This document shows positions 13,095 through 51,203 of a DNA stretch of 64,000 bases, one piece after another. Source of the DNA: Eledone cirrhosa (lineage: Eukaryota). The DNA is taken from positions 28,024,001 to 28,088,000 of the forward strand of contig OZ024753.1 of NCBI GenBank assembly GCA_964016885.1, given 5' to 3'. The notes beneath the pieces were generated by a model. It searched no databases, had not been told where the DNA came from, and was given only the letters and a program-made list of their open reading frames with translations. Position numbers and translations under genes: made by a program. Positions within the stretch are counted from its first letter, which is position 1. Each line of letters starts with the position of its first letter.

Positions 13095-13571
13095 TATACT
13101 ATAAAATTGTTTATTTACATCAACATTTCGTATATTATTCAGTATACAACCCGAATCATGAATGTATGTATGTATATATATATATATATATGAATTTTAT
13201 TACCATAACAGAAGTCTGAAGAGATTTTGATTCCCGAGTCGGGCCAGATTGATACAGATCGAGCCTTGAGCTGATCAATCATGGAACACACGTCACACTT
13301 CAATAAATGTAATGAAGATCTAACACCTCGTCCTTTTTATTATCATTATATATATATAATATGGCAGATACTAATCAAATTGTTTGAGGCAATCATAAAG
13401 CACTCAATAAGGGAGCAAGAAGTTAATACATTATTGTCCAGAGTAAACACAAAAGTAAACAAAATGTGACACCAAGTAAAATGACCGAAGGCAGTGGCCA
13501 TACATATACCACAACAACGATAAATACAAATATGTTGAAGACACACACATATATATATATATATTATCATC

Positions 13572-13910
13572 ATTCATCATTTCATTTTTACGTCCGCTTT
13601 TTCCCTGCTCGCAAGGGTGGGACGGGAACTGAATTTGGCTTGGTTTCTACAGCTGGATGCCCTTCCTAACACCAACCTCATTTACAGTGAGTGCTGGGTG
13701 CTTTTTTGCCGTGGCACCTGCATGACCACTTTACAGTGGAATGATATGGACCCCAGTCCCTATCATCTCATTTCTACAGCTGAGTAAACTGGAGCAATGT
13801 GAAATAAAGTGTCTTGCTCAAGGAAACAACACATCACCCGGTCTGAGAATTGAACTCACAACCTTTCGATTGCAAGGCCAATGCTCTAACCACTAAGCCA
13901 TCTGCCTTCA
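13572..13910 (-). mobile_element. SINE family A
   Basis: Reverse complement of the 8342 type; 3' end matches the young RTE tail. Confidence 0.85.
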
Positions 13911-14249
13911 TGGCTTAGTGGTTATATGTATACATATGTGTGTGTTTTGTTTATCATCATCATCCACTCACATCAATTTTTTCCCTAAAAAGCATGACTT
14001 TAGTTAATTTGTTTCTTATTCAATACGTTTTTTGGCTTTGACATTGAAGCAATTGTAGAAAAGATCCAGTCATATGTTGTGGCATTTATTTTATAATCAA
14101 ATATTTAATATTAAAGAACAATTAGAGCACCTTAAATACTCAAGATAGGCTAGCTGGAGATTATTTTGATCCCAGAACCTGATTGGTACTTATTAACTCT
14201 TGGCGGGTGAATAAGAAAATCGGCTGGAAAGGATGATAATAATGATTAT

Positions 14250-15350
14250 AATTGTTTCTACTTTAAGCACAAGGCCAGCAATTACCCAGTGCATTACTGG
14301 TACTTTATTTTATCGACCCCGTAAGGATGAAAGGCAAAATCAACCTCGGCGGGATTTGAACTCAGATCGTAAAGGGACGTAACTATACTGGAAAGCATGG
14401 CGTCCGACCCTCTACCGATACTGCCAATCCACCGCCCTTAATAATAATGATAATAATGATAATGATTTAAGAAGTTGCCATTGGCCACTATGAGCATATA
14501 TATATTGTTTTTCATTTGTTTTACACGTGATTAGGGCCACAACTACCCCAGGAAACCCATACACAATCCTAAATGACTTCAGCTTTGCACCACTCTTACC
14601 CACTACTTACAAACAACCACCACTCTCACCCACCTTTCAGCAAATATATAAATATATGGGGAGGCTAGCACTTCTATCTCCTCTCTCTCTCTCTCCTTTA
14701 CCCTCCTCTTCCTTGAGTAATACTTTAAAAAAAGTTGATAATAAAAACAATTGTCTACTTCAATACAGAACAGGTTTCAGAAAGATAGATAAAAAGATAA
14801 AACCAAAGCATAATAATAATTAGGATATAGAGGATTAGTTATAGGGTAAAAAGTAAATGACATCACTTTTGAAGTTTACTGAAAATACTAAATGAGTGTT
14901 TTATATTGTTTTTTTTTTCCTTTTCTTCCCATGCTTATAATAATAATTGTTTCTACTATTGGCACAAGGCCAGAAATTACCCAGTACATTACTGGTACTT
15001 TATTTTATCGACCCCGTAAGGATGAAAGGCAAAGTTAACCTCGGCGGGATTTGAACTCAATGGCAAGGGCCGTAACTATGCGTCAAAGCATGGCGTCCGA
15101 CCCTCTACCGATACTGCCAATCCACCGATGCTTATAATAATAATAATGATTTCTACTATAGACACAAGGCCAGCAATTTAGGGAGAGGGGAAAATCGATT
15201 ATATTGACCTCAGTGCATTACTGGTGCTTTGTTTTATCAACCCCATAAGGATGAAAGGCAAAGCTAACTTGAACTCAGAACGTAAAGGGCCATAACTATG
15301 CTGCAATGCATTTTGTCCAACGCTCTACCGATACTGCAAATCCACTGCCC
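14250..15350 (-). mobile_element. Cluster of three tRNA-SINE family B copies (14250-14438, 14945-15127, 15146-15350)
   Basis: ~190-bp element: head GGTGGATTGGCAGTATCGGTAGAG, B box GAGTTCAAATCCC, centre GCCTTTCATCCTTACGGGGTCGATAAAATAAAGTACCAG, (ATT)n tail. More than 15 copies in the window (e.g. 7331, 20422, 24838, 27377, 27937, 29692, 30690, 31333, 31937, 45553, 49064). Confidence 0.85.
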
Positions 15351-15354
15351 TATA

Positions 15355-48344: not shown

Positions 48345-48415
48345 TATTTTATTATGCGCATTTCAAAAACAAATATCATCATGTAATAATATTTGTGTTT
48401 TCATCAGATAAAATA
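48345..48415 (-). ncRNA. Minimal type I hammerhead ribozyme with palindromic helix III (TGCGCA)
   Basis: TATTTTAT-CTGATGA-16-bp helix II-GAAA-TGCGCA-TA-ATAAAATA; helix I is a perfect 8 bp. Confidence 0.8.
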
Positions 48416-48541
48416 GGAAGACATGATATGAAGGTCAAAAAACACTTGTGAATAGTGCAGCTTTAAATCAACATATCATGATATGTTGATTTAAAGCTGC
48501 ACTATTCACAAGTGTTTTTTTACCTTCATATCATGTCTTCC

Positions 48542-48612
48542 TATTTTATCTGATGAAAACACAAATATTATTACATGATGATATTTGTTTTTGAAATCCG
48601 CATAATAAAATA
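48542..48612 (+). ncRNA. Mirror hammerhead ribozyme (helix III TCCGCA)
   Basis: Right arm of a spacerless palindrome centred at 48478/48479. Confidence 0.75.
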
Positions 48613-51203
48613 CATGGAACTCTTTTAACCATCTTTTGATCTTATATATTATATATATATATATATATAAAAATCAGGATGGAATCCATTTGAAACTGGG
48701 TAACCATTATGCAACAGAGTACTTGATACTTGAGATAGTAGAGTATAGTTATATTATATGAGTCTGGAACTATATTTTAATCAAACCTATATATATATAT
48801 ATATATATATATATCAACAGTCGATCAACTTTCGCCAAATCAGACCGAGGAAACAATGTTTCCATTGGTCTTTCCAATTGCTAATACTATCTATCTGTTG
48901 CAACTCCAGGTAGAAGGAGCAACATGAAATAAAGTGTCTTGTTCAAGGACTTAATGCATCACCCGGTCTGGGAATTGAACTCACAACCTCACAGTTGCGA
49001 ATACAATTCTCTAACCACTCAACCATGCGCCTTCACTATATAATCATCATTATTTAATGTCCAAGGGAGGTGGATTGGCAGTATCGGTAGAGGGCCGGAC
49101 GTCATGCTTTGCAGCAAAGAGTTACAGCTCTTTATGATCTGAGTTCAAATCCCGCCGAGGTTAACTTTGCCTTTCATCCTTACGGGGTCGATAAAATAAA
49201 GTACCAGTAATGCATTGGGATAATTGCTGGCTTTGTGTCAAAAGTATAAACAATTATTTAATGTCCATTTTCCCTGTTAGCTAGGGTTGGGTGGGTTATC
49301 ATAGATTAAGTCAGTTCTCAATCAAAGTTGCTGATCTCTCAGATGAGCTAGAAACATGTCACTGTACTTTACAGATCATAGTAGATGCTTTTTATTATGG
49401 CATCAGCACTAGGGAAGTTGTCATGTCTCTAATTCAAATGAAGTGTCTTCTTGACTCTTTTTCTCTATGTAAGTTTTCTGCGATTGAATGCTCTTCCTAT
49501 CACATTTGTGTCTTTGTCTGTGTCCTGTAACTTAGCTATTCAACAAAATTTTTGATAAAATACATACTGCAGTTGATATGATTAGCTAAATCTTTTAAAT
49601 GTTGTGCCCCAACATGGCTGCAATCTATTGACTGAAACGAAAGAATGATAGAATACTGTAAACCAGGGATCCCTAACATTTTTAGACCATTGACCTCCTT
49701 TATGGAATCCTTAATCCTTCATCAATTCCAGGCATGTTATTGGCTTTGGCTGTCAATTTCTTTTGTTTGTATTTGTAACCCATAGATAAGTTTATATTAG
49801 TTTAAGTATAGATTTTTGTTTTGTTTTTATTTTTAGTACATGTATAATGGTTATAGTTAGGTTTAGGGTTGGGAAAACATCTAAAATGTTCCAATATAAA
49901 ATAAAATAAATGAATTGTTATGACTATGGAGAGAGTTATAGGAAGTGTAAACTTGAAACAAATCAATATATGTTGACGTGTGTTTTGACAAGATATGTTG
50001 TGTATAGTTTCATTTGCATGTATCTAAAAGCTCTCACTTTCAATTATATTTTTAACCCTTTAGCATTTACATTACACTATATTTACTATTATATGTTGAT
50101 AAGGACCTGTCCAGCCCATGCAAGCTTGGAAAAAAACAGACATAAAAATGATAATGATGATGAGGATTATATATATTTATATTTCATCATAGCAAGGGCT
50201 GGACTATATATACATATATATAAAGAGAGAGAGAGAGAGTTAGTTCCACAACAAATTAGCAAACCCTACTTGAGGACACGCATTTCACCCAACGGATTCT
50301 CAACTCGAGTTAGGTTGCATGCACAACCTAACTCTATACTGAACACACCCTATGGAGTGAGTGCTCTACTTACTATGGATATAACCTCCCAGTTTTTACC
50401 ACTATATATATATATATATATATATATAAATGTTTCACCTTATGCGGATCCTCAGCTTGAACTCAGGATCCACATAATGTGAAACATTTGTTCTCGGTAT
50501 GGTGAACTAACTGTTGTGGAACTACTTCTACCAAAGTCGTCCCATCGACTACTACGGATATAACCCTCCAATGTTCTACTATTATATATATATATATATA
50601 TATATATATCACCAGTCTGAGGAGCAGGTGGATACTGGAGTCGGGTCCATAACTCCTATGGGTCACCTTGAGCCAATCCCCTGCGAAAGGTACGGATACG
50701 CAATAAATATTTTTCATATGTAAATGAAAAGTCTTGTTTTTTCTATTATATATATATATATATATATTTATATATATATATATATATATATTTATATATA
50801 TATATATATATATTTATATATATATATATATATTTATATATATATATATATATTTATATATATATATATATTTATATATATATATATACACACACATATA
50901 TGTGTGTGTATAATACACACACACATAGAAAATGACAAAACTATAATTATCAATGAGTTGAAATACCTCCTAAAACCATTTGAATGACATTTAGTGTCCC
51001 CAAATGTCTATTATCTACTGTATCTAGTGTTAGCCTCACAAATATTGTGCTGCTTTTAAAATAAAAGTTATTAGTAATTTAGATAGTTTCTAGGCCAAGG
51101 TTTATTTGTGTTAGATATAGTAGAATAATAATGAGAAGCAGAATAATTTCAGATATATCAGCATGATTATTGTATAATGATAAATATATATATATATATA
51201 TAT

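Follow-up and report, generated by a model that had tools for sequence, protein, structure and literature searches.

A 64,000-nt stretch of the Eledone cirrhosa genome (assembly GCA_964016885.1, contig OZ024753.1, positions 28,024,001 to 28,088,000, forward strand; hereafter the window) carries two hammerhead motifs in which helix II is extended into an arm of about 60 nt. Judged from their sequence, both almost certainly come from the 3' end of Penelope-like retroelements (PLEs) of the Hydra type that make up one lineage, and both window copies are dead scraps of such ends. The explanation that we favour, by a modest degree, is a long-armed type I hammerhead in the terminal repeat of these elements, with a GARUC/GAGC internal loop (the module) that may well be recognised by the element's own reverse transcriptase (RT)-endonuclease protein. 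Its supports are the location of the motif in the element, the support for the fold, a single RT clade, and the retention of the arm and of a palindromic helix III where the catalytic core has changed. Terminal hammerheads of PLEs are well known (PMC4209133, PMC8557442, PMC6765202), and the arm is a new structural variant of this known pairing of element and ribozyme.

Layout and damage of the window copies

The features of the two copies are as follows:
13199..13346, + strand: copy 1 as a whole, a 5'-truncated PLE 3' end (fragment of the pseudo-long terminal repeat, pLTR) of family C, between (TA)n runs; ends approximate
13216..13222, + strand: copy 1, 5' half of the hammerhead core, CUGAAGA, read from the sequence
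13223..13282, + strand: copy 1, 60-nt helix II arm, with the GAGUC strand at 13236-13240 and the GAGC strand at 13268-13271
13283..13300, + strand: copy 1, damaged 3' half of the core (GGAAC), decayed helix III and 3' strand of helix I, by comparison with family copies; GUC triplet at 13292-13294
50608..50750, + strand: copy 2 as a whole, a 5'-truncated PLE 3' end of family B, with (TA)n on both sides; ends approximate
50617..50623, + strand: copy 2, 5' half of the hammerhead core, CUGAGGA, read from the sequence
50624..50684, + strand: copy 2, 61-nt helix II arm, with the GAGUC strand at 50638-50642 and the GAGC strand at 50670-50673
50685..50701, + strand: copy 2, GAAA and then a deletion of 9 nt that has taken away helix III and the cleavage site, by alignment to genomic loci L081 and L077

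A preliminary description of the window had reported a layout shared by the two motifs, and this is present at the positions and spacings it gave. In copy 1, CTGAAGA (13216-13222) is followed after 13 nt by GAGTCGGG (13236-13243), after a further 20 nt by CCTTGAGC (13264-13271), after 11 nt by GGAA (13283-13286), and after 15 nt by AATAAAT (13302-13308). The same series in copy 2 reads CTGAGGA (50617-50623), 14 nt, GAGTCGGG (50638-50645), 20 nt, CCTTGAGC (50666-50673), 11 nt, GAAA (50685-50688), 13 nt and AATAAAT (50702-50708). A pattern of this layout matched twice in the window; none of 100 shuffles gave two matches, and the maximum in any shuffle was zero.

Both copies had been described as damaged, as they are. 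Copy 1, which is placed in its family by about 30 genomic copies alike at 87-90%, has GGAA in place of GAAA, a non-palindromic, decayed helix III and a broken helix II base; its arm scores 88 bits with our model R1, in which copy 1 is itself among the building sequences. Copy 2 has lost its helix III and cleavage site with the 9 nt, and its arm has the proposed fold in the minimum free energy (MFE) structure (-23.4 kcal/mol, z -1.7). An Rfam scan of the window gave no hammerhead match.

The earlier interpretation, a hammerhead variant with a structured helix II of about 60 nt and a conserved internal motif, stands, except for the compensatory C-G/T-A swap beside GGG that was cited for it. The swap is real in the window copies, but its position (columns 46/68 of alignment A1, which holds 37 rows: 35 natural copies chosen across families and the two window copies) is not a conserved pair; in other families it also reads T.G, T.T, C.A or A.A. 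Genuine covariation occurs at other pairs.

Parent element

The parent element, absent from the preliminary description, was identified in the present analysis. In family A, the 3' end is fixed about 238 nt after CUGA and is followed by (TA)n, and the 5' extent varies among copies. About 1 kb upstream of the motif lies an endonuclease with CxCX5C and CxxC..E..N..CxH signatures, preceded by an RT with RWR, DKT and YRDD; the hammerhead stands about 1 kb past the stop codon, and the motif was found downstream, within the examined stretch, at 14 of 25 endonuclease loci. One open reading frame (ORF), in which the RT is followed by a C-terminal GIY-YIG-type endonuclease, is seen at L534 (861-aa open frame), L417, L419 and L421. 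L417 has PADKTG, with DKT instead of DKG, and RWR where the Hydra clade has RWK. The CxCX5C linker and the CxxC/CxH around E and N were recognised by eye in the endonucleases of L072 and L419 and in the family B C-terminus, and also by regular expression; CCHH is absent. Insertion at (TA)n was observed for the sampled copies and for both window copies.

Common to these elements and the Hydra-clade PLEs of Craig et al. 2021 (PMC8557442) are the C-terminal GIY-YIG-type endonuclease with its CxCX5C linker and CxxC/CxH around E and N, the DKT and RW(R/K) motifs, (TA)n targeting, and a 3' hammerhead in which helix III is palindromic and the base of helix II is often mismatched. The elements differ from that clade in length (about 3.8-5.7 kb, against a general tendency to less than 3 kb), in having three subfamilies with non-canonical cores, and in the arm: all Hydra hammerheads of File S2, including octopus Hydra-1_oBim, have a helix II of 3-7 bp with loops of 3-10 nt, whereas the arm here is 57-63 nt. 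The module strings were not found in the Hydra or Naiad entries in the searchable part of that supplement. Pfam recognised neither the Hydra-type RT nor the endonuclease. A Naiad (HHR_half_core) origin was ruled out by the C-terminal endonuclease, which in Naiad is N-terminal, before the RT.

At L418, in a partial tandem, a hammerhead and tail stand ahead of the following unit, whose ATG comes 280 nt later; this is the partial-tandem pLTR arrangement of PLEs. The same junction also occurs in contigs of two public runs from one sample (one DNA run and two runs of unrecorded kind were compared). The Poseidon PLE of Anolis (Frangieh et al. 2024, PMC11167929) likewise has a pLTR hammerhead near the ORF start and an optional 3' tail, to which two preferred 3' end positions among the present copies correspond. 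It belongs to a different clade, its ORF starts inside stem II rather than 280 nt downstream, and no long arm is mentioned in the accessible text.

For family B, to which copy 2 belongs, a Hydra-type endonuclease C-terminus lies 1.1-1.3 kb upstream of the motif at L079 and L163. Among 30 loci found by the family B endonuclease piece, 3 carry the family B motif 1.1-1.2 kb downstream, two of these being the places of L079 and L163, in stretches that reach only 1.5 kb. Family C, that of copy 1, was not traced to an ORF in the loci examined; it is about 75-80% alike to family A and its relatives over motif and tail.

Most sampled copies are short and without an ORF, and this, together with the lack of an ORF traced for family C itself, would fit a non-autonomous retrozyme or short interspersed nuclear element rather than an autonomous PLE. 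That origin is barely credible and is largely refuted by the ORF-linked copies: the 5' ends form a continuum that extends to full-length elements with ORFs, the copies are dispersed with no short-unit tandem arrays seen in the loci examined, and arm and tail sequence is common to family C and ORF-linked family A.

Two further candidate parents were rejected. A link between family 2 and the ORF at L420 was dropped, since the two are separated by an inverted fragment and (TA)n and the ORF groups outside the clade. A non-Hydra PLE beside L025 and L031 is a separate nested element; at L031 (1100-4330) an almost full-length PLE from another clade, accompanied by an inverted 5' copy, sits in (TA)n directly after the module-bearing end.

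Copy number in the genome

The exact spacing of the preliminary description recurs widely, with 662 exact matches in the 3.0-Gb genome and none in the control. Looser patterns add 3,047 and 386 matches, again with no control match for either, and a pattern without any helix II letters gives 8,126, against 70 in the control. By eye, the module lineage accounts for 86 of the first 100 matches listed for this last pattern; the other 14 are not part of it. Of 30 loci examined from it, 25 were of the module lineage; GAGTC was exact in 22 of these, and GAGC stood exactly at the expected place in 15 and with at most one change in 8 more. All these counts are lower bounds, because copies decay.

Fold of the hammerhead and its arm

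Helix I and an NUH cleavage site are present in intact copies, giving a full type I hammerhead with GUH. The order is helix I (at most 6 bp), CUGANGA, the 57-63-nt helix II arm, GAAAC, a self-complementary helix III, GUH and AATAAA. The arm has about 20 bp with internal loops and the conserved module. From the core outward, about 8 bp form a proximal stem that is mismatched in the middle; then come a small loop and 2-3 bp, a G-C pair, the AR/G internal loop, U-A and C-G pairs, a bulged pyrimidine, an R-Y pair, two mostly G-C pairs and a variable hairpin. A hammerhead fold with such an arm is very likely.

Covariation in the stems had been proposed, and in alignment A1 double changes occur in 20 of the 29 pairs of the structure that we drew up ourselves. 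In this structure 82.5% of cells are paired, compared with 71.6% in shuffles (0 of 500 reached the observed value), a control that related rows inflate, and with 27.6-38.7% when partners are slid. In part of the stem, the rows of family B are shifted by one column. Helix I accounts for 6 pairs, with 79% of cells paired and double changes in all 6, and the apical hairpin has only 69% of cells paired. Helix III remains self-complementary in changed forms (ACGCGCGU, ACAUAUGU and ACAAUUGU, and ACGAUUGU with wobbles).

The module was compared across the 12 families with at least 3 members, which hold 160 of the 207 instances. At -15..-12 from GAAAC, all 12 families read GAGC more often than any other sequence; 10 of them have GAGUC as the 5' strand and the other 2 have GAAUC. 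All 11 positions between GAGC and GAAAC vary, some in only one or two families. The distance from module to GAAAC is 12 nt in all 179 instances when 11-13 nt was allowed, some of the loci having been selected on 12, and in 187 of 195 when 10-14 nt was allowed. The two module strands face each other over a hairpin of variable length, which fits an RNA loop; a DNA site need not show that. When single copies were folded, all three module pairs appeared in the MFE structure for 8 of 12 exemplars, with z from -0.3 to -3.4.

The minimal type I metazoan PLE hammerheads of Cervera and de la Pena 2014 (PMC4209133) have in common with these motifs the CUGANGA/GAAA core (here the commonest form in 8 of the 12 families), a short helix I (3-6 bp in that type), a palindromic helix III implying dimers, an AU-rich flank, the pLTR location and many families per genome. 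The type has a helix II of about 4-8 bp with a small loop, called 'larger than usual' at 7-8 bp, against about 20 bp with internal loops and the module here. The searchable part of the supplement did not contain the module strings. The long arm also falls outside the Rfam model Hammerhead_1 (RF00163): of six intact-copy loci, L109 gave one weak match (19.7 bits, E 1.9, gathering score 34) and the other five none. The preliminary description did not recognise the arm as described, and we likewise found no account of it in the accessible literature on long or extended helix II in retroelement hammerheads; Repbase and Dfam lie outside that literature and may hold part of it. An article on O. vulgaris repeats (PMC13282606) does not mention hammerheads in its main text.

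Current search descriptors, with their limits on the length of helix II and their strict CUGANGA core, miss thousands of such motifs. Outside the genome, pattern matches numbered 15 and 25 in viral contigs, 116 in metagenomes (a scan of 16 of 64 parts) and 6 in prokaryote genomes. One of 131 viral and metagenome loci passed a crude test of helix II closure, and it was GC-rich and unconvincing. When model R1 was run on 55 loci (50 from the viral, metagenome and prokaryote collections and 5 from the own genome), the best score was 24.9 bits, with broken stems. We read these matches as chance, and no convincing homologue was found in the viral, prokaryotic or scanned metagenomic collections. An AGUA/GAG variant family (L388, L422-L425), suggestive of a bulged-G (loop E-type) motif, was discarded, as it lies in sequence that looks like coding DNA from another repeat and has no R1 score.

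RT phylogeny and arm length

Forty Hydra-type elements of the genome, with 46-82% identity to the family A RT, were compared. A module-type hammerhead lies near 13 of them (L558 and L568 by weaker links), 16 have arms of 14, 26, 30-33 or 47 nt, and 10 had none assigned; the remaining element, L536, has a 36-nt-arm hammerhead in mid-element. The module-linked elements form one RT clade (SH-aLRT, an approximate likelihood-ratio branch test, 99 from a quick IQ-TREE run on 43 rows and 98 with FastTree on 24 rows), in midpoint-rooted trees from quick searches without bootstrap that hold elements of this genome only. All 16 short-arm elements fall outside that clade. Between its two main branches there is no blastn likeness outside the RT core and simple repeats, even at the hammerhead, and the module is kept.

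Across families the arms measure 14, 26, 30-36, 47, 53, 57-63 and 65 nt. Long helix II arms without the module occur in families with 53 nt (L483, L491-L494) and 65 nt (L470, L486, L495) and also in L496-L499; these have internal loops of their own and palindromic helix III, and their parent proteins were not found. Arm elongation therefore recurs, and the GARUC/GAGC module marks one lineage.

This recurrence is among the points that would suit a reading in which the long arm is an incidental expansion and the conserved letters are either a DNA-level element, such as a pLTR promoter or endonuclease site, or inherited without a role. The pLTRs of PLEs carry promoters (PMC6765202), in tandems the ATG follows 280 nt after the hammerhead, and all module families come from one ancestor. 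We nevertheless regard this reading as quite improbable because of the compensatory changes along the arm and the structural register in which the two module halves face each other across the variable hairpin; the flanks, moreover, have diverged beyond blastn detection and the module is still there.

Several Hydra-type families (L546-L549, L540-L541 and L542-L545) have open frames of 877-963 aa and, in some cases, matching pLTRs at both ends, and so may have been active recently. A short RTCGAGTGCT-like motif in the pLTR tail, about 75-110 nt past the cleavage site (L042, L102, L563, L541, L566), is common to long-arm and short-arm families and is possibly a promoter or an element for the start of reverse transcription.

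Altered catalytic cores

The commonest core is canonical CUGANGA in 8 of the 12 families, CCGUCGA in 2, CCGACGA in 1 and CUGAAAGA in 1. ORF-linked subfamilies included cores invisible to the pattern of the preliminary description. The CYGUCGA core (U4C and A6U in standard numbering) has 2,028 genome matches, with none in the control, and falls into two subfamilies; examples of altered cores are L519, L605-L623 and L572. The two CCGUCGA subfamilies lie on separate branches, each beside canonical or CCGACGA relatives, and their arms resemble those of their own branch, so the core change arose twice. A third group has CUGAARGA, with one extra base after A6.

The altered-core families keep the arm, GAAAC, the palindrome and GUH. 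Within-family distances are 0.069, 0.092 and 0.090 for the three altered-core families, and 0.094 for one canonical family and 0.114-0.158 for the rest, which suggests that the altered-core families are young, with sampling that differs between families. Some members of the CCGUCGA subfamilies have long ORFs; among altered-core families, L534 has the 861-aa open frame and L563 has pLTRs 96.8% alike over 464 nt. Nothing in the data is more surprising than an altered core that recurs with the arm retained. In other hammerheads, activity was low when A6 was changed or followed by an insertion, and U4C was viable in a viroid hammerhead; Perreault et al. considered that outside contacts may offset variant cores (PMC3088659).

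A tentative and more far-reaching reading is that the hammerhead is changing jobs. The lineage would have gained a protein-docking arm and altered its core at U4 and A6 twice independently (more than 2,000 copies), with the arm, GAAAC and the dimer palindrome kept. The outcome would be either a non-cleaving scaffold for reverse transcription, serving both as ribonucleoprotein and for dimerisation, or a working natural CCGUCGA core rescued by a distal contact of which we found no description.

Role of the arm

Under the favoured explanation, helix III would join two RNA copies, and families with canonical cores would cleave themselves slowly at GUH, both steps being modelled on known PLE hammerheads. 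The element's protein would bind the arm just upstream of the point where reverse transcription starts, and would then insert the cDNA at (TA)n. With such binding the arm would be kept while cleavage can weaken. We favour protein recognition because the module stays fixed while its possible helix I partners change, because the arm is kept where the core is altered, because the module stands a short way upstream of the 3' ends, at which reverse transcription has to begin, and because hammerhead cleavage is dispensable for insertion of the anole PLE in vitro (PMC11167929). Taken by itself, the assignment of the module as a binding site for the element's own protein is a candidate that we put at slightly below even chances.

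The main rival is a tertiary contact, in which the internal loop would be a receptor that docks helix I or the A-rich stretch following it, stabilises the active fold and lets CCGUCGA-type cores cleave. The fixed 12-nt distance to GAAAC would suit it, as would the GAAAC, palindrome and GUH kept in altered-core families and the precedents for offset cores and viable U4C (PMC3088659). The same double core change on two branches, with CCGACGA relatives beside each, could also mean compensation. Helix I, however, differs widely between families and the module does not, and the AATAAA stretch also follows short-arm families that lack the module. To our knowledge, known loop I-loop II contacts lie nearer the core than 12 nt, which we also count against a tertiary contact. 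We consider it unlikely, though less so than a DNA-level or neutral origin.

Several points weigh against the favoured explanation. The pairs counted for the fold come from our own structure because RNAalifold did not recover it from A1, giving only 3 other pairs, and the shuffle control is affected by kinship among rows. The module pairs are invariant across A1, and therefore lend no support to their own pairing. Conservation is almost as high at a number of adjoining stem positions (10-11 of 12 families), and common ancestry therefore accounts for some of the module's invariance; many loci, besides, were obtained with patterns that fixed the module letters. Single-copy folding is mixed, with the module pairs of window copy 1 not all in the MFE structure. 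L536, with its 36-nt arm, lies inside the module clade, its hammerhead being probably a nested insertion, and the trees are the quick, midpoint-rooted ones without bootstrap described above. Finally, sister Hydra-type families with 14-33-nt arms have open frames of 893-954 aa; the arm is therefore a lineage-specific addition and not a general requirement of this element type.

Hammerheads in PLEs are widespread, cleave weakly in vitro and were dispensable for insertion in the one reconstituted system. The lineage offers a natural experiment in one genome, with long-arm and short-arm families, canonical and doubly changed cores and some open ORFs side by side, so that a self-cleaving processing signal and a structured protein-recognition element can be set against each other directly.

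Other features of the window

Other PLE-type hammerhead ends, with short helix II and three of them as inverted pairs, lie at 921-1147, 25879-25945, 43088-43166, 48334-48623 and 51322-51569; the one at 43088-43166 resembles a Hydra-type family with a 26-nt arm. Positions 34908-40688 hold a GC-rich array of tandem units, each about 78 nt long, with more than 1,800 codons open in three frames. Short exon-like coding stretches occur at about 8021, 9453 and 29080 on the + strand, two of them ending at GT, and the window may span a host gene.

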